32,331 bases of DNA from an uncultured virus (IMG/VR IMGVR_UViG_3300037418_002777) (Duplodnaviria; Heunggongvirae; Uroviricota; Caudoviricetes). Positions 871 to 21,068 of the stretch are shown here, piece after piece. Where the stretch lies: IMG/VR virus record IMGVR_UViG_3300037418_002777. The stretch is one strand, 5' to 3'. Within the stretch, counting starts at the first letter, position 1. Every line of letters begins with the position of its first letter. The position numbers were made by a program, and so were the translations under genes. The notes under the pieces are model-generated. The model was not told the DNA's origin. It saw nothing but the letters and a program-made list of their open reading frames with translations, and ran no database searches.

Positions 871-888
871 GCCGGCCTGCGCCAGCAC

Positions 889-919
889 AAAGCCCGCGTG
901 ATCCGCGGGCTTTTTCTTT
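889..919 (+). terminator. Rho-independent terminator ending the capsid unit
   Basis: AAAGCCCGCG-TGATC-CGCGGGCTTT stem-loop running into TTTTTCTTT. Confidence 0.9.
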
Positions 920-920
920 A

Positions 921-936
921 AGCAATTTCCATGCCA
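921..936 (-). promoter_or_regulatory. sigma54-type -24/-12 box, reversed relative to the late genes
   Basis: Minus strand reads TGGCAT-GGAAA-TTGCT with exact GG-N10-GC spacing. Confidence 0.65.
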
Positions 937-955
937 TAATGTCTCCTGAAAGGAG
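932..955 (+). promoter_or_regulatory. Extended -10 sigma70-like promoter plus small SD-occluding hairpin
   Basis: TGcCATAAT at 932-940. CTCCT (943-947)-GAA-AGGAG (951-955) pairs with the SD of the 962 gene. Confidence 0.55.
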
Positions 956-961
956 CCCACC

Positions 962-1453
962 ATGGCCTTCACTGACATTACCTCGACCGCCGAAGTGCGC
1001 GCCGTCCTCGGCGTGTCCGAGAAGGAGCTGCGCGACGACGTGCTGCTGCTGCCGCTGTACTCGACCCGGCTGACCGAGGCCCTGCGCGACCTGCACACCC
1101 AGCTGCTGGCCGACTACGCGAGCGCAGCCGCACTGGACTCGAGGACTGACGACCAGCAGCGCTTCGTCGACCTGGTGCAGGCCTACGCCTCCCACCACAT
1201 CGCCACCCAGTGCCTGGGCGCGCTGCCGATGTTCGCCAAGCAGCAGGTCACCGACGGCAAGAACGCGCTGCAGCGCGTGGCCGACCCGTACGCCCAGCTG
1301 AGGAAGGACGTGCCGTCGGTGCTGTACATCCTGAAGGTGCGCCTGCGCGGTGCCTACGCGGGGATCAATCCGGACGCGACGCCGCCGCTGCCGGCCGAGC
1401 AGCTGGCGGCGCTGGCCGCGACCCGCGGCACCGACCCGGTCACCGGAGCCTGA
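962..1453 (+). CDS. Putative head-tail adaptor/connector (163 aa)
   Basis: AGGAG SD, helical character, first gene after the capsid unit. Confidence 0.6.
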   Translation: MAFTDITSTAEVRAVLGVSEKELRDDVLLLPLYSTRLTEALRDLHTQLLADYASAAALDSRTDDQQRFVDLVQAYASHHIATQCLGALPMFAKQQVTDGKNALQRVADPYAQLRKDVPSVLYILKVRLRGAYAGINPDATPPLPAEQLAALAATRGTDPVTGA

Positions 1454-1454
1454 C

Positions 1455-2288
1455 ATGGACCTGGCCGAAGCGTCCAGCTTCTTCGACGACGACCCGGTGC
1501 GCGACGCCTACAGCGGCGCGCTGCTGTTCTACGGCCACACCAGCGCGCACGACGACCACACCTCGTCCGGCGCGACGGCGCGCCGGCGCACGCTGGCGGC
1601 CGCGCCCGAGGCGGCGGCACCGGCGCGCGGCGTGGTCGACCTGTACGGCGAGGTGTGGCTGGTCAGCAACAGCAACCTGGACAGTTTCGACGGCGTGCCG
1701 ATCCGGCGCAGCTTCGGCCTGAAGAAGTCGACCGGGCTGATGACCGCGCTGACCCCGGCCCAGGCCTGCCTTGGCCAGGCCGGCACCGACTTCCACGCGC
1801 ACAAGGAATACTTCCGCGACAACCAGGACGCGCGCACCGGCAGCGACTGGGACGTGATGTGGAACATCTTCTGCCCGCCGTCCGAGCCGGTGGCGAAGGG
1901 GACCTTCCTGCGCCAGGGCGGCACCCTGTTCCGGGTGCGCAACGCCTATACGACGGTCGAGGAGCTGGTGATCGCCGAGGCCGACCAGTTCGATGCCGAC
2001 GCGCTGCAGAGCGCGGTGTTCACCAGCGCCGTGCTCGACCTGGTCACCGACCGCCGCGGCACCACCACCACCTCGGCCCAGGTGGTCCAGACCGACCTGC
2101 AGAAATACTACGCGTTCCGCACCCAGGCCGAGGGCAACGCGCAGGCCGGCGACCGCGCCGTGTTCGTCGCCAAGAGCGCGCTGATGCCGGCCGTCGGCAT
2201 CGAGTTCACGCTGCAGGGCGCGAAGTGGCGCACCCTGGCCGTGGTCAGCGAACAGGACGCGTGGATGCTGCACGCGCGACAGGTATGA
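1455..2288 (+). CDS. Putative head-closure/head-tail joining protein (277 aa)
   Basis: GGAG then ATG at 1455, 1 nt after the upstream stop. Beta-rich; C-terminus (FTLQGAKWRTLAVVSEQDAWMLHAR) resembles head-closure proteins; gene order fits. Confidence 0.55.
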   Translation: MDLAEASSFFDDDPVRDAYSGALLFYGHTSAHDDHTSSGATARRRTLAAAPEAAAPARGVVDLYGEVWLVSNSNLDSFDGVPIRRSFGLKKSTGLMTALTPAQACLGQAGTDFHAHKEYFRDNQDARTGSDWDVMWNIFCPPSEPVAKGTFLRQGGTLFRVRNAYTTVEELVIAEADQFDADALQSAVFTSAVLDLVTDRRGTTTTSAQVVQTDLQKYYAFRTQAEGNAQAGDRAVFVAKSALMPAVGIEFTLQGAKWRTLAVVSEQDAWMLHARQV

Positions 2289-2788
2289 TCAGCATCAACG
2301 CCAACCAGCTGAAGGTCAGCCTGGACAAGATCAAGGCCCGCAAGGACCAGATCCACAAGACCGCCGACGGGCGCTTCCGCCAGAAGCTGTTGTACCTGTT
2401 CGGCCTGGCGGTCAAGGTGTCGCCGCAGTTCTCGGGCGACTTCGCCGCCAACTGGAACATCGTGGTCGACGGCAACATGCCGGTCTACCGCCCGCTGCCG
2501 GGCAAGTACAGCGACCTGGTGCACGAGAAGGGCGGCCACTACCGCGTGGTGGCGCACAAGGCCGGCGACCCGGAGGCGGTCAACATCTCCACCTTCCGCG
2601 GCCTTGGCCAGCTCAAGGGCGTGACGCTCAAGTCGCGCGTGCACTTCGTCAACGCCACCGAGCTGCACACCGACGGCACCCGCATGATCGGGCCGGACGG
2701 TGCCGTCAACCTGCGGCCGGAGAACCTGATCCCGGGCGGCGTCCGCATCGAATCGTATCTGCGCGCCCGCGCGAAGGAGATGGCATGA
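2285..2788 (+). CDS. Putative neck/tail-completion protein, HK97 gp10-like (167 aa)
   Basis: ATGA overlap at 2285. SPQFSGDFAANWNI resembles the gp10-family PVDTGxLRxSW motif; gene order fits. Confidence 0.6.
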   Translation: MISINANQLKVSLDKIKARKDQIHKTADGRFRQKLLYLFGLAVKVSPQFSGDFAANWNIVVDGNMPVYRPLPGKYSDLVHEKGGHYRVVAHKAGDPEAVNISTFRGLGQLKGVTLKSRVHFVNATELHTDGTRMIGPDGAVNLRPENLIPGGVRIESYLRARAKEMA

Positions 2789-3198
2789 GCGAGCAGGCCC
2801 GCCTCGACATCATGAACGTGATCAACCAGATCCAGGCGGATTTTTCCGACTATCCGCTGGTGGTCGAGTCGGACAATCGCCAGGTGGTTGACGAGGCGAC
2901 GCAGGACAATCCCTACCTGCAGGTCGAGATCGACTATCTGCCTGGCGGCGGCCAGATGGACCTGGGCACCCGCCCGATGGTCAAGCAGGTCGGCCAGCTG
3001 TGCCTGTACGCGGTGGTCAAGGAAGGTGCCGGCAGCGCGGGCGCCGGCCACCTGCTCGACTTCGTGCTGCCCTACTTCGACTGCAAGACGCGCGGCATCG
3101 TCACCTTCCACGCCGGCCAGCGGGTGCGCCCGATCCGGCGCAACGGCAAATGGTATGCACCGGTCTGGTTTGACTTCTGGTTCGTGCGCTACACCTGA
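2785..3198 (+). CDS. Putative tail terminator protein (137 aa)
   Basis: ATGA overlap; size, position just before the tail tube gene, and alternating beta-strand pattern. Confidence 0.65.
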   Translation: MSEQARLDIMNVINQIQADFSDYPLVVESDNRQVVDEATQDNPYLQVEIDYLPGGGQMDLGTRPMVKQVGQLCLYAVVKEGAGSAGAGHLLDFVLPYFDCKTRGIVTFHAGQRVRPIRRNGKWYAPVWFDFWFVRYT

Positions 3199-3203
3199 CG
3201 CGC

Positions 3204-3220
3204 CTGGCATGAAAATTGCT
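3204..3220 (+). promoter_or_regulatory. sigma54-type -24/-12 box upstream of the tail tube gene
   Basis: CTGGCAT-GAAAA-TTGCT; GG at 3206-3207, GC at 3218-3219. Confidence 0.7.
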
Positions 3221-3256
3221 GTTATACAGCAAACTTTGCAACACGTGACGGAACAG

Positions 3257-3289
3257 CCAAGGTAGACTGGCGGAAATTTTACCTTGGAG
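3257..3289 (+). promoter_or_regulatory. Hairpin overlapping the tail tube SD, with a -10-like hexamer in its left arm
   Basis: CCAAGGTAGA (3257-3266) pairs with TTTACCTTGG (3278-3287). SD GGAG at 3286-3289. TAGACT at 3263-3268 has no good -35 at 17 bp. Confidence 0.55.
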
Positions 3290-3296
3290 CACTACT

Positions 3297-4535
3297 ATGC
3301 CGCTGCCATCAGCCGACCGCGTACAGCTTGCCTACATCCCCGAAGCCACGTTCGGCGTGACGCCGACCACCGGCAACGGCTACAACCTGCGCACCACCGG
3401 TGAGACCCTGCAGTTCAACCTGACCAAGGAGACTGACAAGGAGCTCAACGCCAACGCCGAGAACACCTCGTCGACCACCACCGGTGCCCAGGCTGACGGC
3501 GACATCAAGGGCCACATGCAGTACGCCGAGTACGACCGCCTGTTCGCCGGCCTGATGCGCAGCGCCTGGTCGGCCTACGGTACCAACGGCGTCGGCTCGA
3601 CCTTCTCGGCCAGCGTCACCGCCGGCACGCTCGGCACGGTGGCGTCGGTGATCACCGCCGGCGCCGCACCGATCAACGCCAACGCGTTCACCACGCTGGC
3701 CCCGGGCCAGTGGTTCAAGGTCAACATGCCGGGCGACCCGAACGACGGCAAGCTGGCGCGCGTGTCGCTGACCGTGGCGCCGACCCCGACCACCGTCACC
3801 TGCGACGTCAACACGCCGCTGACCGCCGCCACCGCGGTGGCCGGCAGCTCGCTGTCGACCTCGCGCCTGAAGAACGGCGTGACGATGCAGTCGTTCACGA
3901 TCGAGCGTCAGATCAGCGAGATCGGCCAGTACATGGCCTACCGCGGCCTGTACGTGTCGAAGTTCTCGACCCAGTTCGCCAGCAAGTCGATCACCGACGT
4001 GACCTTCACCACGCTCGGCAAGGACATGATCAAGGGCGGCGCGACCACGCTGCCGGGCACCACCGCCGCGTCGCAGACCTACGACATCCAGAACGGCGTC
4101 ACCGGCGTGGCCAACATCTGGGAGAACGGCGCGCCGCTGGCCGGCACCACGATCAAGTCGATGAAGTTCGACATTGACTCGGGCCTGCGCGCGCAGGACG
4201 GCCTTGGCGTGCTGGGCCTGGTGGGCGTGGGCATCGGCACCTTCGCCGTGACCGGCACCCTGGAGGTGTACTTCGCCAACGGCGCGCTGTTCGACAAGTA
4301 CGCGAACGACGTCTACACGTCGATCTGCCTGACCACCAAGGATTCGCTGGGCAACGGCTACGTGATCTCGCTGCCGCGCGTGATGCTGACCAAGGCCAGC
4401 GTCAACGCCGGTGGCCGCAACACCGACCTGATGGCCAGCTTCGAGTTCACCGCCTACGCGGACAAGGCCAACGCCAATGCCGCGCTGCGCGCGACCATGT
4501 TCCTGGACCGCTTCGGCGCGGCGGTGACGCCGTAA
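3297..4535 (+). CDS. Major tail tube protein (412 aa)
   Basis: N-terminal LAYIPEATFGVTP and C-terminal VTGTLEVYF...GNGYVISLPRV are typical of siphovirus tube proteins. Followed by terminator, chaperone and tape measure. Confidence 0.85.
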   Translation: MPLPSADRVQLAYIPEATFGVTPTTGNGYNLRTTGETLQFNLTKETDKELNANAENTSSTTTGAQADGDIKGHMQYAEYDRLFAGLMRSAWSAYGTNGVGSTFSASVTAGTLGTVASVITAGAAPINANAFTTLAPGQWFKVNMPGDPNDGKLARVSLTVAPTPTTVTCDVNTPLTAATAVAGSSLSTSRLKNGVTMQSFTIERQISEIGQYMAYRGLYVSKFSTQFASKSITDVTFTTLGKDMIKGGATTLPGTTAASQTYDIQNGVTGVANIWENGAPLAGTTIKSMKFDIDSGLRAQDGLGVLGLVGVGIGTFAVTGTLEVYFANGALFDKYANDVYTSICLTTKDSLGNGYVISLPRVMLTKASVNAGGRNTDLMASFEFTAYADKANANAALRATMFLDRFGAAVTP

Positions 4536-4561
4536 GATCTTCTCGTGGTGGGGAAGTGGGT

Positions 4562-4600
4562 GGGCGCAGTGCCAACAAGGGCTGCGCCCTTTTTGCTTTG
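4562..4600 (+). terminator. Rho-independent terminator after the tail tube gene
   Basis: GGGCGCAGT (4562-4570) pairs with GCTGCGCCC (4581-4589), then TTTTTGCTTT. Confidence 0.8.
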
Positions 4601-4614
4601 CGTCAGCTTTCCTT

Positions 4615-4643
4615 TTGACAATGTTCAACAGCTTGCGTACACT
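4615..4643 (+). promoter_or_regulatory. Near-consensus sigma70 promoter for the tail assembly chaperone
   Basis: TTGACA (4615-4620), 17 bp, TACACT (4638-4643). Confidence 0.85.
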
Positions 4644-4674
4644 GGCCGCTCCACAACTCACCAGGGAAAATACT

Positions 4675-5145
4675 ATGTTTGATATCTTTGCCGAGTACGC
4701 GGTCGACCCGAAAGCCGAGCAGGAGGGTCGCTGGTTCCCGTTCGGCACCGGCCGCGTGCTGGTCGCGCGCGCCGGCAACGCCGCCTACAATCGCATGATC
4801 ACGGCCCGCTATGAGCAGTACAAGCACGAGCTGAGCCAGAAGGACACGCCGGCCCAGCAGCAGGCTGCCGAGCGCCGCTCGAACCTGATCATGGCCGAGG
4901 TGATGGCGCACACCGTACTGCTCGGCTACGAGGACTTCGGCTACCAGGGCAAGCCGATCGAGTACAGCATCCCGAACGCCCAGATGATGCTCGAACATAA
5001 GGAGTTCCAGCGGGCGATCGGCGCGCTGGCGGCTGAATTCCGCAACTTCCGCTACCAGACCGAAGAGGCCGACGCAAAAAACTCGGTGCCTACCTCCGCT
5101 GGGAACTCCAGTGGGGGCCTGAACTTGGCTTCCTCGAGCAGCTGA
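4675..5145 (+). CDS. Tail assembly chaperone (lambda gpG analogue, 156 aa)
   Basis: AGGGA SD then ATG at 4675; lies between tube and tape measure genes; slippery site near the 3' end. Confidence 0.85.
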   Translation: MFDIFAEYAVDPKAEQEGRWFPFGTGRVLVARAGNAAYNRMITARYEQYKHELSQKDTPAQQQAAERRSNLIMAEVMAHTVLLGYEDFGYQGKPIEYSIPNAQMMLEHKEFQRAIGALAAEFRNFRYQTEEADAKNSVPTSAGNSSGGLNLASSSS

Positions 5146-5423
5146 AGGCGGACGGGGAGGACCCGGTAGCACTACGCGACCGCCCCGTTCTCGACCTCCG
5201 CCAGGCCTACTACTACGGCGCGTACCAGCTGATCGCGCGCGGGCGGCAGGCCAGTATGTCAGGACCGTTGGCGCTGGACGTCATCCCGAAGATCCGAGAT
5301 TACTGCGACCTGTTCAACATCACCAACCTGAGCGAACGGGAGCGGCTTGTCCGACACGTGGTGGCCCTCGACAACGTCTACCTCGCCTACATGGCAGAGA
5401 GGCGCAAGCAGCAGGCACAGTAA
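4675..5423 (+). CDS. Frameshifted tail assembly chaperone (gpGT analogue) via -1 ribosomal frameshift
   Basis: A AAA AAC at 5076-5082 in the X XXY YYZ phase. The -1 frame is open from 5079 to TAA at 5421-5423 (KLGAYLRWELQWGPELGFLEQ...ALDNVYLAYMAERRKQQAQ). Confidence 0.85.
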
Positions 5424-5428
5424 TTGCT
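5413..5428 (+). promoter_or_regulatory. sigma54-type -24/-12 box upstream of the tape measure gene
   Basis: AGGCAC-AGTAA-TTGCT; GG at 5414-5415, GC at 5426-5427. Confidence 0.6.
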
Positions 5429-5456
5429 TGCCTACAACAAGCCTCCATTGGATAAT
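5428..5456 (+). promoter_or_regulatory. sigma70-like promoter for the tape measure gene
   Basis: TTGCCT (5428-5433), 17 bp, GATAAT (5451-5456). Confidence 0.65.
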
Positions 5457-5479
5457 GTTGCTCCAATGGAGGCTTTTCT
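5439..5479 (+). promoter_or_regulatory. 14-bp perfect hairpin sequestering the tape measure SD; possible attenuator
   Basis: AAGCCTCCATTGGA (5439-5452) pairs with TCCAATGGAGGCTT (5462-5475), which contains GGAGG. Followed by TTCT and ATG at 5480. Confidence 0.85.
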
Positions 5480-8400
5480 ATGAGCGAAGGCATCGAGGGC
5501 GTAGGCGGCCCGATTGACGTACCTGTAACGTCCAGCGGTGCCGAGGGCATCGAGCGGATCGTCACGGCCCTCGACCGCCTGCACGATGCCTTGCAAGGGC
5601 TCGGGGCCGTCTCCGGCCTGACCCGCCTCGAGCAGCAGATGCAGCTGATGCAGGCGTCGATGACCACCGGCTTCGCCGCAGTGGCGGCGCTGGCGCAGAA
5701 GGTCGAAAACGAGGCCGTCGCCGCTGCTGAGCGGGCCTCAGCCAAGACGCTGAACGTCCACCAGCGCCGCGATGTCGAGTTGAATCGCCTGCGCGGCCAA
5801 GCGATGGCTGATTACGTCAGCTGGTGGGACAAGATGCTCTCGATTGAGGAGAGCCGCGACACCGAACTGAATCGGATGCGCCAAAAGTCCGCTGCCGAGT
5901 ACGCCGCGTGGTGGGAAAAGACGGCCGCCGAGCGCGCGGCGATCGAGCAGCGCCGTGATGTCGAGCTGAACGCGATGCAGCAGAAGGCTGCCGCCGACTA
6001 TGTTTCCTGGTGGGCAAAGGCGGCCGCTGAACGTGAGGCGATCGAACAGCGGCGTGACATCGAGCTGCATGCAATGCGCCAGCGTGATCTGGCCGATTAC
6101 GTGTCCTGGTGGGACCGGACGCTTGCCGTTCAAGAGGCGGCCACGGCGCGGCAGCTGGCGGTTGCCGAGGCTGCAGCCGAGCGCCAGCGGGTCCTGAACA
6201 CCAACTTCATGACGGCCGGGCCGGCCGCGCAGATCCGCAGCGCCACTCAGGCCCAGACCTACCTGCAGCAGCCCGGCGCCACCCGCGAGGGCGCGATTGA
6301 GCGCTACGGCAGTGTGGCGGTCGCGTCCGACGTCGAAGCGCTACGCGCAGCCCATGCGGCGCTGACCCCGGCCGTGGCCAACTCGACGAGCGCGACCGAG
6401 GCGCACAACCGCGCGATGAACGAGGCGCACAGCCTGGCGCGCGGCCTGGCCGGTTCCCTCGGCGGCCTGTGGCTGACCTACGGCAGCCTGGTGCCGCTGG
6501 CCGCGGGCGCGGCCATTGCCGGCTCGCTGCGGCAGGTGGTCGACGTCGGCGCTCAGGTCGAGCACCAGCTGACCAACGTGCTGGCGATCACCGGCAGCGG
6601 CGTCAACCTGGACCAGTTCCTACAGGTGTCGGACGGCTCGCTGCACTCGCTGGTCGAGGGCGCCAACGCGATGCGCATGCTGGCGCAGAACGGCCTGAAC
6701 GCGTCCGAGTCGCTGCAGGTGCTGCCGGCGATTCTGGACTTGGCCACTGCCGGCGAGATGAGCGTCGGCCAGGCGGCGCTGGCCGCCACTGGTGCCGCCT
6801 CGGCGTTCGGCTTGGGCTACAGCGAGGCCGGGCGCGTCGCCGACATCTTCGCGAAGACCGCGGCCAACTCCAACACCTCGGTGCTGGAGATGACCGAGTC
6901 GATGAAGCAGGCCTCGACGGTCGCCTCGCTGTTCAAGGTGTCGATCGAGGAGACGGCCGGCATGCTTGGCCTGCTGGCCAAGATCAACGTGACCGGCGGC
7001 GCCGCCGGCACGTCGCTGACCAATATGCTGACCGGCCTGTACGAGCCGACCGAGAAGGGCAAGAAGGCGCTCAAGGAGCTGGGCGTCGAGACGTCGCTCG
7101 CATCCGGCCAGCTCAAGCCGTTCACCCAGCTGCTTGAAGAGCTGAAGGGCAAACTGGCCGGCTTCACCGATGCCGCGCGCGTCGACTTCCTCGGCAGTAT
7201 CTTCACGGTGCGCGGCACCAAGGCGGCCGAGCTGGCGCTGAGCAACCTGGACGCCTACAAGGAAAAGGTGCAGGACGCGGCCACCGCGTCCGGCTTCATG
7301 GCCGACGTCGTCAGGAAGCTGGAGGACGACACCACTGGCGGCTTCCAGCGCCTGGGCGTGGTGGTGCAGAACAGCTTCGTGCGCGCGTTCGCCCAGGCCT
7401 CGCCATACGTGCAGCACATCGCGCTGGAGCTGACCGACGCCTTCAAGGACGGCGGCAGCGCCTCGACCGGCCTGCAGAACTTCTCCACCAACGTCGCCCG
7501 CCTGACCGGCGCGCTGGTCGACAACCTGGGCACCGTGACCCTGGTCGGTGCCGGCTATGTCGGCCTGCGCGCGCTGGGGCCGACCATCGGCCTGCTGAAG
7601 GAGGCCGCTGCTGCCAGCTGGGTGCTGTCGGCCGCGCAGGCGGCCGAGACGGCGGCAATGGGCGCGCTGACCGCCGCCAACGTCGCTGGTGCCGCCACGG
7701 CGGCCGAGGTGACCGCCGTCACCACCGCGCAGACGGCCGCGACCGAGGCCGCAACCGTCGCGTCCGCAGCGTGGTCGGCAACCCTGTTGCCGGTGCTGGG
7801 CGCGGTTGCCGTGGCGGTCGGACTTGGGGCTGCGGCCTGGCTGCTGTTCCGCGACAATACCGACGAGGCGGACAAGACCAATCAGAAGATCGCCAATTCG
7901 CTGCAGGTGGTCGACGAGGCGCTTGAGCGCGAGAATAAGCGGCTGGACGAGAACCTGAAGCTGTGGGACGCAAAGAACGGCGTCCGGCTGGCCCCGGAGA
8001 CGGTGACCCAGAGCGCGGTGGACGCCGCCCGCGCGCAGGTCCAAAAACTCGAGCAGGAGGCACGCCGCAGGGGCTTTGACCCGGACGAGATCCGCCATCC
8101 CCAGGAGTCCGGCTACGACGCCGGCAGCGGCGTCGTCACGCTCACGCGCAGCTATGACGGGCTGGCGGAAGCCATTGCCAAGGCCGACAAGAATCTGGCC
8201 GGGCTGGAGAGTCGCAAGCTGTTTAGCGATGACGTGGTCGGCCCGAAGCAGGCGCTGGAGAAGGCGCAGAACGCCACCACGCAGCTGCGCGACGAGCTGG
8301 CGAAGTTCTATGCCCAGGCCAGCGAGCGCGACTCGAAGGGAGAGTTGTACCAGCAGAATGCGGCCGTACGCGCGGTCAGCCTGAAGGCGGCGCCGCTGTG

Positions 8401-13533: not shown

Positions 13534-13545
13534 TTGGGAGCACGC

Positions 13546-14565
13546 ATGGCACTCATTTTCATCGACGGCTTCGACCATTACAGCACGGCCGACATCAGCA
13601 AGAAGTGGGCCGGGTTCGGCGGCGGCACGGTCAACTCTAGCGGCGGGCGCCGCAGTGGCGGCTGCTACGTCGCGTCCAGCAACAGCAGCACGTACCTGAT
13701 CAAGGCGTTCGCCAACAGCGCGACCGTGGTCGCGGGCTGCGCGTTTTACCTGCCGAGCATCAGCGGTGGCGGGCATGCGATGGTGATGGCCTTGGGCGAC
13801 GGCGGCAGTGCCCAACTCACCCTGGCCGCCGCCCCGGACGGCACGCTGAAATTGTGGCAGGGCGCGATCAATAACGTTTTGCTTGGCACTGGCCCGGTGC
13901 TGGCCATCGGCACTTGGTACTACATTGAGATCAAGGCTACGATCAGCGACTCGATCTCGGCCGGTGCCTGCGTGGTGCGCGTGAACGGCGTGGCGGCGAT
14001 TACGCTGGCCGCCGGTGCCGACACGAAGGCAACCGGCAACGCTTATGCGAATCAGCTGTGGATCGGCCAGGTTGGCTCAAGCGGGAATAGCCAGCGCGTG
14101 GACGACCTGTACCTGTGCGATACGTCCGGCAGCGTCAACAATGATTTTCTGGGCGACTGCCGAGTCGATGCGCTCTACCCGAACGCCGACGGTGCGTACA
14201 GCAGCTGGGCACCCAGCACCGGCACCGCGCACTGGTCGCTGGTGGACGAGACCGCGCCGAACGCCACCGACTATGTCAGCGCCAGCACGGTTGGCGCCAA
14301 GGACAGCTATGCTTTTACCGACCTGACGGCACCCACCGTGTTTGGCGTGCAGGTGAACAACTACGCCTGGAAGGACGACGCCGGCGGGCGCAGTATCGCA
14401 AACCTGGTGCGCTCGGGAGGAGTGGACGCGCAGGGCGCGGGCACCGCGCTGGCTACGACGCCGCTGTACCTGTCGAGTGTGCACGAGACCGACCCGGCCA
14501 CCAGCACCGCCTGGACCCAGGCTGGGATTAACGCAGCTGAGTTCGGTTCTATCGTAACGGCGTAA
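13546..14565 (+). CDS. Putative virion structural protein, beta-sandwich/lectin-like (339 aa)
   Basis: GGGAG SD then ATG at 13546 (MALIFIDGFDHY). WYYIEIK...VRVNG...VDDLYLCD pattern is LamG/ConA-like; lies in the tail module. Confidence 0.6.
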   Translation: MALIFIDGFDHYSTADISKKWAGFGGGTVNSSGGRRSGGCYVASSNSSTYLIKAFANSATVVAGCAFYLPSISGGGHAMVMALGDGGSAQLTLAAAPDGTLKLWQGAINNVLLGTGPVLAIGTWYYIEIKATISDSISAGACVVRVNGVAAITLAAGADTKATGNAYANQLWIGQVGSSGNSQRVDDLYLCDTSGSVNNDFLGDCRVDALYPNADGAYSSWAPSTGTAHWSLVDETAPNATDYVSASTVGAKDSYAFTDLTAPTVFGVQVNNYAWKDDAGGRSIANLVRSGGVDAQGAGTALATTPLYLSSVHETDPATSTAWTQAGINAAEFGSIVTA

Positions 14566-14568
14566 GCC

Positions 14569-16152
14569 ATGACCAGCGCGCTCACCTCGCAGCTGGTCGT
14601 CGAAACACTTGGCACAGCTCAGCCGCATGCCGTATCTTCCCAGCTGGCCCTTGAGACGCTTGGCACCGCCCAGCCGCGCGCAACGTCCAGCCAGGTCTCC
14701 GTCGAGGTGCTGCGGGCGAATGTGACGAGCGCCGTCTCCGGACAGCTGGCCCTCGAGATTCTTAGACCTTACGTGATTGGAATTACCGACTTGAGCACTA
14801 TTGTCAACGATTGCGACGTCCTGCTGCAGTCCGGTTCGCGCATTGCGATCGGCAGCGGCGTGCCGCCGCGGCTGGACCTGACCGCCGATGCCTACCTGTT
14901 CAAGGTCACCACGGGCGGCATCGGCTCTCCCAGCACGATCAACCTGAAGGCGATCCTGACCAACCTGTCCGGCACGGTGACCTGGTCGGTGACCGGCGCC
15001 ACCGGCCTGACCACCAGCGGCACCACTGCGGTCCTGGCATTCGCCAACGTGACAGGCTCTTCGGTTACCGTGACCGCGCAGGTGACCTACCTGGGCCAGA
15101 ACTTCACGGCGTCGCTGGTGATCAGCAAGGCCACTGACGGCACCAATGGCAGCAACGGCAGCAACGGCACGCGCGGCACCGTCAACATCGCGGTGGCCGG
15201 CAGCTGGTCCGACAGCGCTGCCACTTCGGCGATCCAGTCGGTGACCGGCACCAGCCCGATCAACCGGGACGTGGTCAGCATGTACACCGGCTCGAGCTCG
15301 ACCACCAAGTATTACCAGAGCGGCTCGTGGCTGACGATGGACGCCTACATCGGCGGCAACCTGCTGGTGACCGGCACCGTGTCGTGCGCGGTGCTGGCGG
15401 CCGACACGATGGTCGGCCAGACCTACAAGACCGCGACCTCGGGCCAGCGCGTCACGATCAACGAGGGCAGCAACAACGCGATCACCTTCTACGATGCTGG
15501 CGGCACCCAGCGCGCGCTGATGGGGGGCTCCGGTGCCGGGGTCGTGTACGGGTCGGCGGTCAACACGGTCCCGGGCGTGTTCGGCTCCGGCGGCTCGGCG
15601 CCCGGCGTGTACGCGTTCGCCTCGTCCGGCACCGCGCTACTGGTGTCGGGCACGGCGACAATGGACAGCGTCAATTCGGGCACCCACCTGCCGGACGCCA
15701 ACAATGCCTACAACCTGGGCAGCGCCGGCAGCGCCTGGGCCGGCATCTATTCGGTCACCGCGCTGAACGTGACGTCGGACGCGCGCGCGAAGACCGACGT
15801 CGCGCCGTCCGACCTTGGGCTGGACTTCGTGCTGCGCCTGCGCCCGGTCAGCTACCGGCTGAAGGTGGGTGAGAACACCGAAGTGCTCGACCCCGAGGCG
15901 GTCGGGCCGTGGGCACCCGGTGCCGAGCCGTGGGTGGCGCAGCCGCGCCCCGGCGCGCGCCGCCACTACGGCCTGCTGGCGCAGGAGGTCAAGGTCGCCT
16001 TGGGCACGCGCGACGCCGCGTTCTGGTGCCTGGCCGATCCGGCCGACCCGGACTCGGCGCAGAGCCTGCGCTACGAGGAGCTGGTGCCGGTGCTGATCCA
16101 GGCGGTGCAGGAGCTGACCGCGCGGGTGCGGGCGCTGGAAGGGAAAGCCTAG
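14569..16152 (+). CDS. Tail fibre/spike with C-terminal intramolecular chaperone (peptidase S74-like), 527 aa
   Basis: Cleavage-site pattern TSDARAKTDV, then LRPVSY, HYGLLAQEV and a terminal coiled coil LRYEELVPVLIQAVQELTARVRALE. Confidence 0.85.
   Translation: MTSALTSQLVVETLGTAQPHAVSSQLALETLGTAQPRATSSQVSVEVLRANVTSAVSGQLALEILRPYVIGITDLSTIVNDCDVLLQSGSRIAIGSGVPPRLDLTADAYLFKVTTGGIGSPSTINLKAILTNLSGTVTWSVTGATGLTTSGTTAVLAFANVTGSSVTVTAQVTYLGQNFTASLVISKATDGTNGSNGSNGTRGTVNIAVAGSWSDSAATSAIQSVTGTSPINRDVVSMYTGSSSTTKYYQSGSWLTMDAYIGGNLLVTGTVSCAVLAADTMVGQTYKTATSGQRVTINEGSNNAITFYDAGGTQRALMGGSGAGVVYGSAVNTVPGVFGSGGSAPGVYAFASSGTALLVSGTATMDSVNSGTHLPDANNAYNLGSAGSAWAGIYSVTALNVTSDARAKTDVAPSDLGLDFVLRLRPVSYRLKVGENTEVLDPEAVGPWAPGAEPWVAQPRPGARRHYGLLAQEVKVALGTRDAAFWCLADPADPDSAQSLRYEELVPVLIQAVQELTARVRALEGKA
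14584..14770 (+). repeat. Four 17-aa (51-bp) repeats at the fibre N-terminus
   Basis: SQLVVETL / SQLALETL / SQVSVEVL / GQLALEIL; Gln codons at 14590, 14641, 14692 and 14743. Confidence 0.85.
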
Positions 16153-16178
16153 ACCGGGAGCAAGAATTGTGCCATGCT
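16150..16178 (+). promoter_or_regulatory. sigma70-like extended -10 promoter
   Basis: TAGACC (16150-16155), 17 bp ending in TGc, CATGCT (16173-16178). Confidence 0.5.
16159..16174 (-). promoter_or_regulatory. sigma54-type -24/-12 box, reversed
   Basis: Minus strand reads TGGCAC-AATTC-TTGCT, a full match to TGGCAC-N5-TTGCW. Confidence 0.7.
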
Positions 16179-16212
16179 CTTGCCTATCGGAACTTAATCC
16201 ACCGCAAGAGCC

Positions 16213-17634
16213 ATGCCCAACCTGCGCGTCATCTACGACAATGCCGCCGACCGTGCGACGGCGCTGACTGCGTCGACCAGCGTCGGCGCGCTGGTGCCGG
16301 CCAACCTGAAGAACGACATGAAGTCGGTGGTATGGCGCTCGGCGAGCGCTGCGGCCGGCGTCACGCCCAGCGCGACGCTGGACCTGTCCTGGACTACCGC
16401 CGAAATGGTCGCTGGCGTCGCGCTGGCCTACTGCAACCTGACGTCGCAGGCGCTGGTACGGGTGCGCGGCACCAACGAGGCCCCGGCCACCAATCTGGTG
16501 CCGGGGTCGGAAAGCCTGTCGACGGCCTACGGCTGGTCCGGTGCCAGCGTGGCCGCGACGACCAAATTTTATGCAGGCGTGGTGCCGTACCAGGAGGTGG
16601 CCAAGGCGCTGTCCTCGACCAACGAGAACCGCGGTGCCAGCCTGGGCACGGTCGCGGCCGGTGCCTACGTCACGCTGACCGTGGCGCTGCGCGCCGGCAC
16701 CGTGAGTGCCGCCGGCGTCGGGCTGTATGACAGCACGGCCGCCAGCTGGGGCGCGAATGCCGACTCCAGCGCGTTGGTGCTGGCCGGGCCGGGCGCGTTG
16801 TCCCGCTCCAGCGGAGGCCTGTTCAACGTCAGCGGCCTGACCGCGACCGACGACACGCTGGTGCAGATCACCCGCCTGTACCAGACCAGCGGTACCGGCT
16901 ACGTCCTGCTGTATCCCGGCACAGCAGGATCGAGCACTGCCGGGCAGTCGGTGCTGGCCACCCGCGTACAAGCCGAGGCCGGCCTGGTGCCGACCAGCTA
17001 CTACCCGACCACGTCCGCTGCGGCCACGCGCCCGCTCGGCTACATGGACAGCTGGCAGTCGTACGCCTTGAACACCGGCTGGGTGTCGGCATGCGCCGCG
17101 CCACCGCTGGGCCTGTGGAACTGGGGGGCTGCGCCGCTGGGTGCCAACGCTTACGCCTATGGCGGCGGCGCGACCGGGCGGGCTTGGGTGCCGGCCCCAG
17201 CCGCAGTGCGCGCGCTGCGCATCGAGATCACCGACGCTGGCAACCCGGGCGGCTACATCGAAGCATCGCGGCTGGTGTGCGGTGCCTACTGGGAGCCGCA
17301 ACGCAACGCCGACTACGGTGCCTCGCTGCAGGTGGTCGACGCCAGCAAGAACTACCGCAACGACGCGGGCGACCTGATGAGCGATGCCGGCACGGTCAGC
17401 AGCAAGCTGCAACTGTCGATGTCGAAGCTGCAGCTTGCCGACGCCACCACGCTGTACGGGCTATTGCGCGGCAACGGCATCATCCGTCCGGTGTTCGTCA
17501 GCCTATTCCCCGAGGACGCCAACCCGGCGCGCGAGCAGGCGCACCAGCTGTACGGCAAGCTGGTCAGTACACCGGCGATGACCCTGCCCTTCTTTAACGT
17601 CGCCGCGGCGACCCTTGAGATCGAGAGCGTCTAA
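16213..17634 (+). CDS. Tail tip protein, distal-tail-like scaffold with an inserted beta-sandwich domain (473 aa)
   Basis: Tail module position. The internal segment from TNLVPGSE to QAEAGLVPTSYYPTTSAAATR looks like a carbohydrate-binding-type insertion. Confidence 0.55.
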   Translation: MPNLRVIYDNAADRATALTASTSVGALVPANLKNDMKSVVWRSASAAAGVTPSATLDLSWTTAEMVAGVALAYCNLTSQALVRVRGTNEAPATNLVPGSESLSTAYGWSGASVAATTKFYAGVVPYQEVAKALSSTNENRGASLGTVAAGAYVTLTVALRAGTVSAAGVGLYDSTAASWGANADSSALVLAGPGALSRSSGGLFNVSGLTATDDTLVQITRLYQTSGTGYVLLYPGTAGSSTAGQSVLATRVQAEAGLVPTSYYPTTSAAATRPLGYMDSWQSYALNTGWVSACAAPPLGLWNWGAAPLGANAYAYGGGATGRAWVPAPAAVRALRIEITDAGNPGGYIEASRLVCGAYWEPQRNADYGASLQVVDASKNYRNDAGDLMSDAGTVSSKLQLSMSKLQLADATTLYGLLRGNGIIRPVFVSLFPEDANPAREQAHQLYGKLVSTPAMTLPFFNVAAATLEIESV

Positions 17635-19974
17635 ATGGCACGCTTCTATTACGGCCAGCTGGACTACATCACCCAGCTGAACTACCTGGACAACCTCGCC
17701 ACGCTCCAGAAGGGCGACCCCGGACCGACCGGCCCGGCCAACACGCTGACGATCGGCACCGTTACGACCGGCACCGCGGCCGCGACCATTACCGGTAACG
17801 CGCCGAGCCAGACCCTGAACCTGACCCTGCCGACCGCAGCGCCCAACAGCCTGGCGATCGGCACCGTCACGACCGGCGCGAACGGCGCGCCAGCGGCCGC
17901 GACGATCACCGGCAGCGCGCCGAACCAGACCCTGAACCTGACCCTGCCCAAGGGTGACCAGGGCATCCAGGGCAACACCGGCCCGGCCAACACGCTGACG
18001 ATCGGCACCGTCACCACCGGCACGGCCGCAGCCACCATCACCGGCAGTGCGCCGAACCAGACGCTGAACCTGACTCTGCCGACGGCGGCGCCGAACACGC
18101 TGGCGATCGGCACGGTGAGCAGCGGGGCGACGGCGGCCGCGACGATCACCGGCAGCGCGCCGAACCAGACCCTGAACCTGACCCTGCCCAAGGGCGCGAA
18201 CTGGAAGGGTGCCTGGGTGTCGGGCACCACCTACGCGGTCGACGACTGGGTCACCAATGCGGGCTCGACCTACCGGCGCAAGGTGGCCGGTGCCGGTGCC
18301 ACGGTGCCCGGCTCGGACAGCACCAACTGGGACGTCGCCGCGGCCAAGGGCGCGGACGGGGCCGGCACGGTGTCGTCCGTCAATAGCATCAGTCCGGTGT
18401 CGGGCAACGTGACGCTGGCGGCGGCCGACGTGGGCGCGTTGCCAGCGGCAGGTGGCAGCCTGTCCGGCAAACTGGCGGTAGGGGGCACGCTGACGCCGGA
18501 CGTCCAGCTTGGGCTTGTCTCTGGCTCGGACACGACCAACAGCAACGGCGGCGTGGCCTTCTACGGCAGCACCAGCAACAAGCAGGCCGCGATCCTGAGC
18601 TACAATACGGGCTCGTTTAACGGCGACCTGCGCTTTTTCGTGTCGCAGAAGGCCTCGGCCAGCCTGGCCACGACGGCCGAGGCGATGCGACTGAATCCGC
18701 GCGGCGCGCTGATCGGCACGACTACCGATGACGGCAGCAGCGCGCTGCAGATCGGCGGCGCGGTGCGTACGACGTCGACACTGACGGCGCGCGCCGGTAC
18801 CGATGGTGAATCGTCGTTTGGGGCGGACGCTAACGGCTCGATCGAGCTGGGCAAGCAAGGGCGCGCGGCAGCCGGCACCCCGTTCATCGACTTCCATTCG
18901 TCGACCAACAACACCGACCACGACGTACGCCTGGTGGCGTCCGGCGGCACGGCTACTGCAGGCCAGGGCACCCTCAGCATGCTGGCCAAGTGGGTCCTGG
19001 TCGGCACCGGCACCGATGACGGCAGTGGTGCCACCCTCCAGGTGGCCGGCAGTGTGCGCACGACCAGCCAGGTGTGGGTGAACGGTGCTTCCTCCATCGC
19101 TGGCTACGCTTCCGCGATGACGTTGTACTACACTGGCGAGGGGTCCCAGCACGGCTTCACCCTCAAGCCGGCGACGTCGGTGGCCGACACCAACGCGATC
19201 AACTTCATGAACAGCGCCGGCACGGTGGCGATCGGCCAGATCCAGCACTTGGCCGGCAACGCCGGCATGAACCTGACCGGCTCGTGGAAGTACCAGGGCA
19301 GCCCGATCCTGACTCTGGCCTCGCAGGACACCTCGGCCGGCTACGTCGGCCTGACCTCCTACAAGATCAACTTCAAGAACGCGGCCAACACCTTCACGTC
19401 GTTCCTGACCAACACCAACACCGCGGCGCGCACCTACACCTTCCCGGACAAGGATGGCACGGTGGCGATGACCTCGGACCTTGCTTCGGCCGGCGCGATG
19501 GTGCTGCTGGGCCAAGCCACGGTGTCGTCGGCGGTGGCGCAGATCGATTTCCTGAACATCTTCACATCGGCGTACGACAAGTACGTGATCGAGGTGCATG
19601 GGCTCACCCTGGCCGTCTCTGCTACGCCTATACTGTACCCCGCCACCGGGGGCGTCGCTGAAAGCACCGGCGGCTGTTATAGCTACAACGCTGCCGGTAC
19701 GAATCAGTACACCAATCTGGCGTATGCGCCCATCAGTGAGACTACCATCGGTTCCGGCAATACCCTGAGCGTGACGATTGAAGTACGCAACGCCAATGAC
19801 AGCGTGAACAAAAAACAGATTGGTGTGCGCGGTGCCACTAACTTCTATGACGGGGTTTGGCGCGAGGGCACCTATGCCAAGTCCGCAGCGATGTCCGGCT
19901 TCCGCCTAGCCACTGCTGGCGGCGGCAACATCACCGCCGGCACCATCCGCGTGTACGGCATCAAGAACTCGTAA
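17635..19974 (+). CDS. Long tail fibre / receptor-binding protein (779 aa)
   Basis: Thr/Gly/Ala-rich with tandem repeats and short GXY runs, a CBM5/12-like segment (AWVSGTTYAVDDWVTNAGSTY), the VSSVNSISP-GNVTL-AADVGA fibre motif, and a DUF4376-like chaperone downstream. Confidence 0.9.
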   Translation: MARFYYGQLDYITQLNYLDNLATLQKGDPGPTGPANTLTIGTVTTGTAAATITGNAPSQTLNLTLPTAAPNSLAIGTVTTGANGAPAAATITGSAPNQTLNLTLPKGDQGIQGNTGPANTLTIGTVTTGTAAATITGSAPNQTLNLTLPTAAPNTLAIGTVSSGATAAATITGSAPNQTLNLTLPKGANWKGAWVSGTTYAVDDWVTNAGSTYRRKVAGAGATVPGSDSTNWDVAAAKGADGAGTVSSVNSISPVSGNVTLAAADVGALPAAGGSLSGKLAVGGTLTPDVQLGLVSGSDTTNSNGGVAFYGSTSNKQAAILSYNTGSFNGDLRFFVSQKASASLATTAEAMRLNPRGALIGTTTDDGSSALQIGGAVRTTSTLTARAGTDGESSFGADANGSIELGKQGRAAAGTPFIDFHSSTNNTDHDVRLVASGGTATAGQGTLSMLAKWVLVGTGTDDGSGATLQVAGSVRTTSQVWVNGASSIAGYASAMTLYYTGEGSQHGFTLKPATSVADTNAINFMNSAGTVAIGQIQHLAGNAGMNLTGSWKYQGSPILTLASQDTSAGYVGLTSYKINFKNAANTFTSFLTNTNTAARTYTFPDKDGTVAMTSDLASAGAMVLLGQATVSSAVAQIDFLNIFTSAYDKYVIEVHGLTLAVSATPILYPATGGVAESTGGCYSYNAAGTNQYTNLAYAPISETTIGSGNTLSVTIEVRNANDSVNKKQIGVRGATNFYDGVWREGTYAKSAAMSGFRLATAGGGNITAGTIRVYGIKNS
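17731..18194 (+). repeat. Four ~35-aa repeats (ABAB) in the tail fibre
   Basis: N(T/S)LxIGTVxxG..AAATITGxAPxQTLNLTLP four times; 62 identical bp at 17893-17954 and 18133-18194. Confidence 0.95.
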
Positions 19975-19984
19975 AAGGAACTAC

Positions 19985-20431
19985 ATGACGATCCAGATCA
20001 TGGCCGACGGCGTCACCCGCGATGCCACCCCGGAGGAGGAAGCGGAGATCCAGCAGCGTGCGGCTGCGGATGTGCCGCTGCTGCGCGCTGCTCAGTGGGA
20101 GGCCATCAAGTCGCTGCGCGACCGGCGCAAGGCGGGCGGCGTCCTGGTCAGCGGGTCCTGGTTCCACTCCGATGACGCCAGCCGCATCCAGCAGCTTGGG
20201 CTGGTGCTGATGGGGGCAGGTATCCCGGCCGACCTGCAGTGGAAGACGATGACCGGCGACTTCGTGACGATGACGCCGGCGCTGGCCCAGCAGATATTTA
20301 CGGCGGTCGCTACCCTGGACCAGGGCACCTTTGCCTGTGCTGAACAGCACCGCCAGGCATTGCTGGAGGCGGCGAATCCCGGTGCCTATGACTTCTCGAC
20401 CGGCTGGCCACCGATCTTCGGCGAAACTTAA
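19985..20431 (+). CDS. Tail fibre assembly chaperone-like protein (DUF4376-like, 148 aa)
   Basis: AAGGA SD. WEAIKSLRDRRKAGGV-WFHSDDASRIQ-WKTMTGDFVTMT pattern; directly after the fibre gene. Confidence 0.75.
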   Translation: MTIQIMADGVTRDATPEEEAEIQQRAAADVPLLRAAQWEAIKSLRDRRKAGGVLVSGSWFHSDDASRIQQLGLVLMGAGIPADLQWKTMTGDFVTMTPALAQQIFTAVATLDQGTFACAEQHRQALLEAANPGAYDFSTGWPPIFGET

Positions 20432-20434
20432 TTT

Positions 20435-20492
20435 TAGAAAATTTCCCACACGCATGTTACACTTTCCGGCAACTTTCCTGTGGAGGTTGCCG
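20435..20492 (+). promoter_or_regulatory. Extended -10 promoter followed by an SD-occluding hairpin
   Basis: TAGAAA (20435-20440), 17 bp ending in TGt, TACACT (20458-20463). CGGCAACTTTC (20467-20477) pairs with GGAGGTTGCCG (20482-20492), with two G-U pairs. Confidence 0.65.
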
Positions 20493-20494
20493 CG

Positions 20495-20989
20495 ATGCGT
20501 TACGACGAAGCCCGCCCGCTGATCCAGACCGGCGATCTGATCGCCTCGCGCGACGTGCACGGTCTGATTGGCCGCGCCACCCAGGCTTTCACCCGCGACC
20601 CCCACACCCACACCGGTGTTGCCGTCTGGCTCGGCGAGCGGCTGTTCATGGCGGACTTGAACAGCGGGCGCAACCACCTGACCGCCGTGTCCCAGCTGGC
20701 CAGCTTCGACGTCTGCGACCCGCCGCCCGGCCTGGCGCGGGCCGACATCGAGCGTGCCGTCTACGACTGGCTGGCCGCCCCGATCGAGTACGGTTTCCTG
20801 GCGTTTCCCGTCATCGGTCTGAAGTGCGCCCTGGGACTGAAGGTGTTCATCCACTGGCGCAAGATCATCGTCTGCTCGGGCGGCTCGGTGCAAATCTTCG
20901 AGAAGGCCGGCTGGCCCGAGCACAGCCGCATGATTTCGCCGGGCGAACTGGTGCAGGACCTCGGCGTCAAGTTGCAAGTTCGCCCCTAA
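20495..20989 (+). CDS. Permuted papain-like NlpC/P60 peptidase/amidase (YiiX/YaeF-like, 164 aa)
   Basis: GGAGG SD, ATG at 20495. Motif order IQTGDLI, HTHTGVA (His), EYG, IVCSG (Cys), ISPGEL is the permuted His-before-Cys arrangement. Confidence 0.8.
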   Translation: MRYDEARPLIQTGDLIASRDVHGLIGRATQAFTRDPHTHTGVAVWLGERLFMADLNSGRNHLTAVSQLASFDVCDPPPGLARADIERAVYDWLAAPIEYGFLAFPVIGLKCALGLKVFIHWRKIIVCSGGSVQIFEKAGWPEHSRMISPGELVQDLGVKLQVRP

Positions 20990-20997
20990 GAATTACC

Positions 20998-21014
20998 CTG
21001 GCATAACATTTGCT
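20998..21014 (+). promoter_or_regulatory. sigma54-type -24/-12 box upstream of the lysis cassette
   Basis: CTGGCAT-AACAT-TTGCT; GG at 21000-21001, GC at 21012-21013. Confidence 0.7.
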
Positions 21015-21042
21015 AGACGGCACGTTCAATAACGCCTAGAAT
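21014..21042 (+). promoter_or_regulatory. sigma70-like promoter for the lysis cassette
   Basis: TAGACG (21014-21019), 17 bp, TAGAAT (21037-21042). Confidence 0.7.
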
Positions 21043-21068
21043 TTCTACATCTTTTCTTGAGGGAAATC

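Follow-up and report, generated by a model that had tools for sequence, protein, structure and literature searches.

Sigma-54-type boxes in fixed register with sigma70-like late promoters of an uncultured siphophage-type virus

The late module and its five sigma-54-type boxes

We analysed a 32,331-nucleotide (nt) stretch of DNA, hereafter the window, from the uncultured virus IMGVR_UViG_3300037418_002777 (Caudoviricetes), in which five copies of a motif resembling the -24/-12 element of sigma-54 (RpoN) promoters lie in front of late genes. The window corresponds to bases 4506-36836, minus strand, of a 48,656-bp IMG/VR virus record that CheckV rated 62% complete as a whole, and its GC content is 63-70%. 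A gene map built on third-codon-position GC content (GC3), together with PHROG and Pfam scans, identified the plus strand as carrying a late module of siphophage type. Eight gaps of more than 40 bp interrupt this late region in the window (530-582, 871-961, 3199-3296, 4536-4614, 5424-5479, 16153-16212, 20432-20479 and 20990-21069). The genes of the record, in window coordinates, are as follows:

outside the window, plus strand: start of the late module, with a 102-residue protein carrying two helix-turn-helix (HTH) units, a Dam-like methylase and the large terminase
capsid end at 529, plus strand: portal, S49 protease/scaffold gene and major capsid
962-3198, plus strand: connector (head-tail) genes
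3297-4535, plus strand: tail tube gene
to 5423, plus strand: tail chaperone with frameshift extension
5480-12064, plus strand: tape measure gene (2194 residues)
to 20989, plus strand: tail tip and fibre genes, the fibre genes being at 16213-20989
21070-23445, plus strand: lysis cassette, with the endolysin at 21621-22274
right side of the record, minus strand: early arm, with SbcCD-like, ThyX and PolA genes

The five boxes and the elements that adjoin them are:

889..913, plus strand: intrinsic terminator hairpin with a 10-pair stem and T-run, ending the head gene unit; box 1 aims into this hairpin
921..936, minus strand: box 1, sigma-54-type TGGCATGGAAATTGCT, reversed with respect to the late genes, before the connector genes
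932..940, plus strand: extended -10-like TGcCATAAT, whose TGCCA is the reverse of the box 1 -24 element; predicted sigma-70 start at ~947
3205..3220, plus strand: box 2, sigma-54-type TGGCATGAAAATTGCT, forward, 76 nt before the tail tube gene
5413..5428, plus strand: box 3, sigma-54-type AGGCACAGTAATTGCT, forward, before the tape measure gene
5428..5456, plus strand: sigma70-like TTGCCT-N17-GATAAT, beginning on the final T of box 3 (consensus promoter scanner)
5440..5474, plus strand: 14-bp hairpin followed by TTTTCT, with the Shine-Dalgarno sequence GGAGG buried in its 3' arm
16159..16174, minus strand: box 4, sigma-54-type TGGCACAATTCTTGCT, reversed, before the fibre genes
20999..21014, plus strand: box 5, sigma-54-type TGGCATAACATTTGCT, forward, before the lysis cassette
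21014..21042, plus strand: sigma70-like TAGACG-N17-TAGAAT, beginning on the final T of box 5 (consensus promoter scanner)

Box 3 straddles the end of the chaperone frameshift frame, whose stop codon TAA falls within the box spacer, and the forward boxes lie 56-92 nt upstream of the start codons at 3297, 5480 and 21070.

Abundance, placement and orientation of the boxes

The sigma-54 consensus is TGGCAC-N5-TTGCW, as at canonical promoters of the glnAp2, pspA and nifH type. When we scanned the window with the pattern GGCAYNNNNNTTGCT (GGCAY-N5-TTGCT) we recovered every one of the five boxes named in a preliminary description of this DNA, at 921-935 (-), 3206-3220 (+), 5414-5428 (+), 16159-16173 (-) and 21000-21014 (+), against an expectation of 0.19, and none of 100 dinucleotide shuffles reached five. 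The description had also placed them in five of the eight late-region gaps of more than 40 bp, a figure that came out the same on our GC3 gene map. The base preceding GG was T in four of the five boxes and A in the one at 5413. A multiple alignment of the five box-bearing gaps was uninformative, the sites lacking homology with one another. It had proposed testing the wider genome for enrichment; across the whole record the pattern GGCAY-N5-TTGCW gave 10 boxes against 0.54 expected (300 shuffles, maximum 3), and the -24/-12 core including the exact GG-N10-GC spacing was present in all five boxes of the window and all ten of the record. Nine of the ten are intergenic and the early arm holds none; eight lie wholly within the 3,635 bp of intergenic DNA, where 0.078 would be expected and none of 2000 composition-matched shuffles reached eight. 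The five further strict boxes that bring the record to ten are found outside the window:

L002:8079-8093 (window -7955..-7941), L002:8281-8295 and L002:8517-8531: three boxes in an 873-bp control region
L002:4343-4357: portal box, reversed, 13 nt before the portal start
L002:1990-2004: protease-internal box, forward, in the S49 protease/scaffold gene, fused to TTGACA-N17-AATACT

The control region is where the late arm and a leftward arm part; one of its boxes lies over the -10 and leaderless ATG of the first late gene and another is opposite-facing. The protease-internal box together with its TTGACA-N17-AATACT resembles an internal promoter that would serve the scaffold part and the capsid gene.

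For comparison, a bacterial metagenome-assembled genome (MAG) of 1.9 Mb contained 43 boxes (~23 per Mb) against 10 matches to the backwards control pattern; the density is ~200 per Mb in this record and ~140-200 per Mb in the phages, i.e., 6-9 times that of the MAG. Such a density would suit a sponge, in which the boxes multiply with the genome, soak up host sigma-54 polymerase and shut sigma-54-dependent host responses, their promoter position being incidental, and the failure to find a phage activator (see below) would suit it too. However, fixed single-base registers, conserved orientation and restriction to the late module, all described below, would be unneeded for a sponge, which we regard as very improbable.

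Three of the five window boxes face the downstream gene (3206, 5414 and 21000) and two point against it (921 and 16159), as do 4 of the 10 boxes in the record. One reading of the forward boxes is that they are plain sigma-54 late promoters, at which a host enhancer-binding protein would open the DNA so that the tube, tape-measure and lysis genes are transcribed; sigma70-like elements nearby would then be secondary, and the reversed boxes would give rise to short antisense or dead-end RNAs. The distances of 56-92 nt to the start codons favour this reading, as does box 2, which stands alone like an ordinary sigma-54 promoter, and -24/-12 sites are found at comparable places in phage YuA, which according to a passage of PMC10914365 needs sigma-54. 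It is harder to reconcile with the boxes that run counter to the genes, in relatives as well, with exact shared-base registers to a -35 or -10, which independent promoters do not require, and with the RNA that a sigma-54 start at box 3 would produce, which is predicted to fold into a terminator-like hairpin hiding the ribosome site. In addition, an activator gene was not found, and we noticed no enhancer motif common to the upstream regions, although no formal motif search was made. On balance we hold plain sigma-54 promoters to be possible but unlikely.

Registers between boxes and sigma70-like promoters

We could distinguish three registers in which a box shares bases with a sigma70-like promoter. 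In register A the box is forward and its TTGCT ends on the T with which a -35 begins, a 17-nt spacer separating this -35 from a -10; this arrangement occurs at the scaffold-internal, tape-measure and lysis promoters. The shared T at 5428 and 21014 had been pointed out previously, and the same -35 elements were called by an independent scanner. In register B the reversed box reads AGCAA-N5-R-TGCC and is followed by AnAAT, with TGCCAnAAT forming an extended -10 directed towards the downstream gene; it is found at the portal, the connector and, more weakly, the fibre promoters. The reversed geometry described earlier for two sites stood at 921, where the plus strand reads AGCAA-N5-A-TGC-CATAAT, but less well at 16159 (plus strand AGCAA-N5-G-TGC-CATGCT), where the -10-like CATGCT at 16173-16178 is weak and poorly kept in relatives. 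A second, weaker reversed match, GGCA-N6-TTGC at 16204-16217, lies over the fibre start codon (gene 16213), the two reversed sites being 45 bp apart. Register C, outside the window, has the form TTGGCA-N17-[GG]CATACT[TATTGCA]TG, in which the forward box contains the -10 of the first late gene; the promoter is leaderless, its predicted start being the A of the ATG.

Registers were counted over 55 strict boxes in seven genomes, with a TTGCT-N22-hexamer test for register A and an ATTnT flank for register B. Register A was present at 12 of the 55 and register B at 14, with no box having both, against a background for these tests of 0.9% (A) and 0.3% (B) of intergenic positions. Eight one-mismatch sites keep register A or B, and in none of them does the mismatch fall in the GG or GC. 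The resemblance to the sigma-54 consensus extends past the 10 fixed positions: of 41 distinct boxes associated with promoters, 35 carry a T immediately upstream of GG and 37 a purine immediately downstream of GGCAY, and the N5 spacer is A/T-rich. At boxes 3 and 5, at the reversed box 1 and at their orthologs, the -24/-12 site lies within the predicted sigma-70 promoter footprint. In register B the invariant AGCAA occupies -26 to -22 of the extended -10 promoter, a stretch with which sigma-70 makes no base-specific contact, and its invariance there implies a second reader.

We also took a census of the fused pattern TGGCAY-N5-TTGCTTGACA in IMG/VR, using its backwards version as control. A -10 at N16-18 was present in 27 of the 50 stretches found, several unrelated lineages of 26-65% GC being represented, and this spread of the fused layout is weakly suggestive of a universal host reader in preference to a lineage-specific protein. 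As a separate observation, an unrelated AT-rich lineage (26-30% GC) has TGGCATTTTTATTGCT directly abutting TGACA-N17-TATAAT, in the same fused layout (L058, L069-L071, L075-L078, L090, L097 and L100).

Conservation of the boxes in diverged relatives

A scan of IMG/VR guided by the tail-tube protein identified 16 loci, two of which represent the same phage, the others having 50-72% identity. The numbers of strict boxes and of matches to the backwards control were:

G003: 8 boxes, control not run
G004: 7 boxes, control not run
G005: 4 boxes, 0 control matches
G006: 6 boxes, 0 control matches
G007: 9 boxes, 0 control matches
G009: 11 boxes, 0 control matches
G010: 4 boxes, 1 control match
G008 (79% complete): 0 boxes, 1 control match
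G011 (36% complete): 0 boxes, 1 control match
G012 (24% complete): 1 box, 0 control matches
G013 (8% complete): 0 boxes, 0 control matches

Pooling G006, G007, G009, G010 and G008 gave 30 boxes against 2 backwards-control matches. In G003 and G004, which are complete and whose gene blocks we mapped, every box is in the late module or the control region. Several extra matches in G006, G007 and G009 are antisense within early genes.

Between genomes of 50-72% tube identity, the N5 spacer and the flanks have diverged, but orthologous boxes are still found in the same place and orientation, reversed before the portal and connector genes and forward in the protease gene and before the lysis genes. 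The box 1 ortholog is reversed in six of six aligned genomes, and the invariant elements of this connector promoter alignment are the terminator, AGCAA, TGCCA.AAT (TGCCAyAAT), the ribosome site and the ATG; G003, which is outside the alignment, has a box 1 with one mismatch. The lysis promoter alignment, likewise of six genomes, retains TGGCA, TTGCT and the TA.AAT of the -10 as invariant and little else; the -10 itself (TAGAAT or TAAAAT) is present in all six, with the N22 register in five and N18 in G009. The 15-mer of register C is identical in five genomes. As for the other window sites, sites 2 and 3 are kept only in G003, where box 2 occurs as GGCACGATAATTGCA at an unchanged distance (-91 relative to the gene start), no other relative having it under the strict pattern, and where box 3 is kept together with its 5440-5474 hairpin. 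Site 4 has one mismatch (TTGCC) in G003, the closest relative, is partial in G010 and was not found in G004 or G007. Two side features at box 2 may be mentioned here: a perfect 7-bp inverted repeat, TTGCTGT-TAT-ACAGCAA at 3216-3232, whose left arm is the box 2 -12 element, and, after this repeat, a conserved block cagcaaactttgcaacac...ccaaggtagact common with G003.

The boxes are conserved, specific to the late module, and fixed in place, orientation and register; conservation, which the preliminary description had proposed to test, extends to position, orientation and both of the registers it had described. Chance, A/T-rich intergenic composition or coding constraint would have to explain all of this, and for some genic matches in relatives coding constraint does look like the explanation: the antisense GGCACC...CTTGCT matches at G007:C1:55782 and G009:C1:31824 lie in orthologous early genes with like flanks and are probably coding-driven, not regulatory. 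For the five window sites, however, such explanations are effectively refuted, given the composition-matched intergenic shuffles of which none in 2000 reached eight, the backwards controls (2 versus 30) and the persistence of orthologous boxes while their flanks diverge, and we treat the probability of this alternative as next to negligible.

G011, a distant relative without boxes, bears on how the registers arose. Within its 29.9 kb it retains a protease-internal TTGACA-N17-GATAAT and, before the two-HTH gene, a leaderless TTGACA-N17-TAGAGT with no box. As the sigma-70 elements are kept alone there, the sigma-70 parts look ancestral and the box looks like an addition.

Hairpins downstream of predicted sigma-54 starts

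Sigma-54 starts are predicted 11-12 nt past the TTGCT, near 3231, 5439 and 21025 on the plus strand and near 910 and 16148 on the minus strand, and sigma-70 starts near 947, 5463, 16185 and 21049. RNA from the predicted sigma-54 start of box 3 (5438-5482) gave a predicted fold of -23.4 kcal/mol (z-score -6.7), the 14-bp hairpin followed by UUUUCU, while RNA from the predicted sigma-70 start at the same site (5462-5500) has no such fold (z-score 0.35). The 5440-5474 hairpin would accordingly be a feature of read-through or sigma-54-start RNA and not of sigma-70-start RNA, and by this folding only RNAs that start inside the hairpin would be translatable. Within the hairpin, the -10 GATAAT sits where the 5' arm meets the loop, and the 3' arm contains the ribosome site. 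At box 1, RNA made in the reversed direction begins at the terminator hairpin (-22.2 kcal/mol, z-score -3.7); two of the five window boxes (1 and 3) aim straight into a strong hairpin. Among the boxes in register, a hairpin with a T-rich tail lies within 5-23 nt ahead of 7 of the 14 in register B and of none of the 12 in register A. Hairpins ahead of boxes fit non-productive sigma-54 starts.

Candidate readers of the boxes

The preliminary description saw no regulator in the window, and the same was true when we extended the search to the whole record and to five related records. A Pfam scan of 34 proteins of the record found no sigma-54 (Sigma54_DBD, PF04552), Sigma54_activat (PF00158) or Sigma70_r2 (PF04542) domain, and none of the three exceeded the cut-off in the five related records, three of which are complete. 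A PF00158 match of 14.5 bits in G003, below the cut-off, fell in a 74-residue open frame beside a ligase-like open reading frame and was deemed spurious. As far as these profile scans reach, the phage is without a sigma-54, activator or sigma factor of its own.

A phage protein of another kind could still read the boxes. The 102-residue two-HTH protein encoded by the first late gene, or an unrecognised factor, might bind with one HTH per box block, repress its own leaderless promoter and either repress or activate the other late promoters. A high-confidence structure prediction (predicted local distance difference test score, pLDDT, 91) shows the two-HTH protein as two three-helix HTH units and a linker, and the protein matched Pfam HTH_23 and HTH_29 and the PHROG annotation 'DNA binding protein'. 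A box covers the -10 and start codon of its own gene, in the 15-mer that is identical in five genomes, and the calculated box centres, at ~-42, -19 and -6 of the sigma70-like promoters, would be classical activator/repressor positions. The gene was sought in nine records; it is present in seven box-bearing genomes (six via an open reading frame starting at the box; G010, G006 and G009 via search) and also in the box-less G011, and was not found in the box-less G008 (79% complete). What makes us doubt this reader is, first, that the box agrees with the sigma-54 consensus at each of the 10 fixed positions as well as at unselected ones, which would otherwise be a striking coincidence. Second, protein identity falls to 33% with the box unchanged, and G011 has the gene with 0 boxes in its 29.9 kb. 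Third, the fused box/-35 occurs in unrelated lineages of 26-65% GC, these lineages having been compared by layout alone. Searches with the protein were of little help, a Foldseek search with the predicted structure finding no match in the PDB at E ≤ 0.001 (best E-value 0.17) and a sequence profile search of the PDB giving weak sigma-region-4-like or HTH matches (best E-value 0.027). We judge a phage-encoded reader to be an unlikely, if tangible, prospect.

A host reader would require a host with rpoN. No near-identical DNA was found by megablast for window 1-20000 among 50,697 phage records, but by tblastn the tail tube is distantly akin to those of Pseudomonadota phages with Dinoroseobacter, Xanthomonas, Stenotrophomonas, Pseudomonas and Caulobacter hosts. 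A 10-sequence tube alignment searched against genome contigs gave two matches of 39-40% identity, in MAGs labelled Methylophilus and Rheinheimera, and the Atlas labels for tail tube relatives were 'Viruses' or 'Pseudomonadota' only. We had considered an actinobacteriophage, with a host lacking sigma-54, on account of a GC content of 67% and PHROG names, and dropped this since the tube matched only phages of Gram-negative hosts by tblastn.

A possible host sigma-54 gate on the late promoters

We think there is about an even chance that host sigma-54 polymerase docks on the boxes, competes with sigma-70 polymerase and so gates the late genes. The boxes would serve as docking sites for the host sigma-54 holoenzyme, inside or abutting the phage sigma70-type late promoters, and the shared bases would make the two polymerases exclude each other at a given promoter. 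When we took the standard sigma-54 closed-complex footprint for the occlusion arithmetic, the part of the sigma-70 promoter hidden by sigma-54 polymerase would be the -35 and spacer in register A, positions -37 to -3 in register B, and the -10 and start in register C. The sigma-54 holoenzyme forms a stable closed complex that does not open DNA without an AAA+ activator, and such a silent complex could be a gate, probably a brake, on the late promoters. A gate or brake is the most economical form of the idea, because a closed complex cannot start without an AAA+ activator and because sigma-54 represses at overlapping sites in E. coli, as described in PMC4551910. Forward boxes might fire too, given a host activator, as reported for YuA. 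That sigma-54 is the reader, that its effect has this sign, and how the gate is released are the parts of the proposal that we infer. As to the preliminary suggestion that sigma-54 acts as a clamp or as a phage-activated late sigma, it is partly supported: it gained from the conserved, late-specific consensus boxes in fixed register, and its second option lost in that no candidate activator was found.

One form of release that we can picture, and that we rate as quite unlikely, is a copy-number timer. Scarce sigma-54 complexes, in whichever orientation suited each promoter, would hold most late promoters off until, upon replication, ~10 boxes per genome came to outnumber the sigma-54 pool; no phage late activator would be needed, and any sigma-54 complexes that fired would run into a hairpin, boxes 1 and 3 being examples.

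Two late promoter-like elements of the window have no box, and both use the -10 TACACT:

4615..4643, plus strand: late promoter-like TTGACA-N17-TACACT, after the terminator at 4577-4591 and before the tail chaperone gene
~20453-20463: late promoter-like TGtTACACT, before a 169-residue gene at 20480

These are among several points that weigh against a host sigma-54 gate: not every late unit has a box (4615, ~20453), and no sigma70-like partner was recognised for box 2, which leaves that box outside the occlusion idea. No means of releasing a brake, which it would need, was found. The register counts are not independent, many of the boxes being orthologs in related genomes, and the excess of the fused pattern in IMG/VR is modest (50 stretches versus 26 for the control, ~2-fold). 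A monomer carrying two HTH domains, as encoded by the phage, could read the asymmetric bipartite box just as well. Moreover, rpoN in the host is assumed, from the Gram-negative affinities of the tube and the two MAG matches of 39-40% identity, and the sequencing runs listed as matching window 600-6000 comprised no RNA runs, only 11 DNA runs from soil and rhizosphere metagenomes. Finally, YuA promoter activity is said (Ceyssens et al., in 2008) to have been lost in an rpoN mutant, which is a positive role for sigma-54.

For most uncultured lineages it is still an open question how a lytic phage that has neither a polymerase nor a sigma factor of its own, nor a known activator, delays its late genes. 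If host sigma-54 is indeed the reader, an activator-locked host sigma factor would here serve as a gate integrated into ordinary promoters with single-base precision. Recognition by sigma-54 is conserved, which should allow the use of standard holoenzymes and of surrogate hosts even though both phage and host are uncultured, and the presence of the boxes may serve host prediction, as it would imply a host with rpoN.

Other features of the record

The 245-bp gap before the portal (L002:4331-4575, window -4437..-4193) contains two sigma70-like elements, TTGAAC-N17-TACAGT and TGgTATAGT, each of which has a GC-rich hairpin with a T-run within tens of bases after it; they might represent a pair of very short transcription units or small RNAs. 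The tape measure protein, at 2194 residues, is unusually long, and in its gene the window and the genome sequence of the record disagree at 11692 and 11774. Rfam and tRNA scans of the window returned no matches.

Comparison with known systems

In comparison with canonical sigma-54 promoters, the boxes have the identical core with GG-N10-GC spacing, T at -26, a purine at -20 and an A/T-rich spacer. They differ in that no activator gene or recognised enhancer accompanies them, that two of the five window boxes and four of the ten record boxes point away from any gene, and that most of them share bases with a sigma70-like promoter.

The closest phage counterpart is YuA, which a passage of PMC10914365 describes as dependent on both sigma70 and sigma54. 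In its record (NC_010116), three fragments are marked as high-activity promoters with a '-24/-12 consensus'; one precedes the scaffold gene, one the lysis genes, and the third lies between the tail chaperone gene and the tape measure gene. The register-A boxes described here are in the same kinds of places. Like the phage studied here, YuA is a lytic siphophage without its own RNA polymerase, sigma factor or activator, and has -24/-12 promoters in its virion and lysis region. In contrast, YuA contains 0 strict boxes, its annotated fragments holding only degenerate GG-N10-GC candidates, and the tail tube matches YuA gp66 with just 26% identity over 87 residues (E-value 7e-5). Reversed boxes and fixed sigma-70 registers are mentioned neither in the YuA passage of PMC10914365 nor in the YuA record. 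With no DNA match, barely alignable tubes and no strict box in YuA, the phage described here is not a Yuavirus; if host sigma-54 does read its boxes, it would extend what is so far the sole experimental precedent.

Transcriptional occlusion by overlapping promoters has reportedly been treated by Zafar et al. in 2014. A systematic single-base interlock of sigma-54 and sigma-70 elements with conserved reversed boxes, in a phage lineage without an activator, was not found in a search of the full-text literature. The nearest mechanistic parallel comes from E. coli, where Schaefer et al. 2015 (PMC4551910) describe sigma-54 as lowering sigma-70 transcription of argT, chaC, mdfA and patA by competition for binding at overlapping sites; the repression was modest (10-60% in vitro), and all repressive sites had the consensus C at -12. 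Both there and here a -24/-12 site lies over a sigma-70 footprint, and C at -12 is present in every box of this study. The E. coli sites of that report belong to scattered cellular promoters, whereas in this phage, as known from its sequence, most late units are involved, in three exact registers, with reversed boxes and throughout a lineage. Should host sigma-54 prove to be the reader, these phages would provide a natural, system-wide example of sigma-54 repressing sigma-70 promoters as it does in E. coli.

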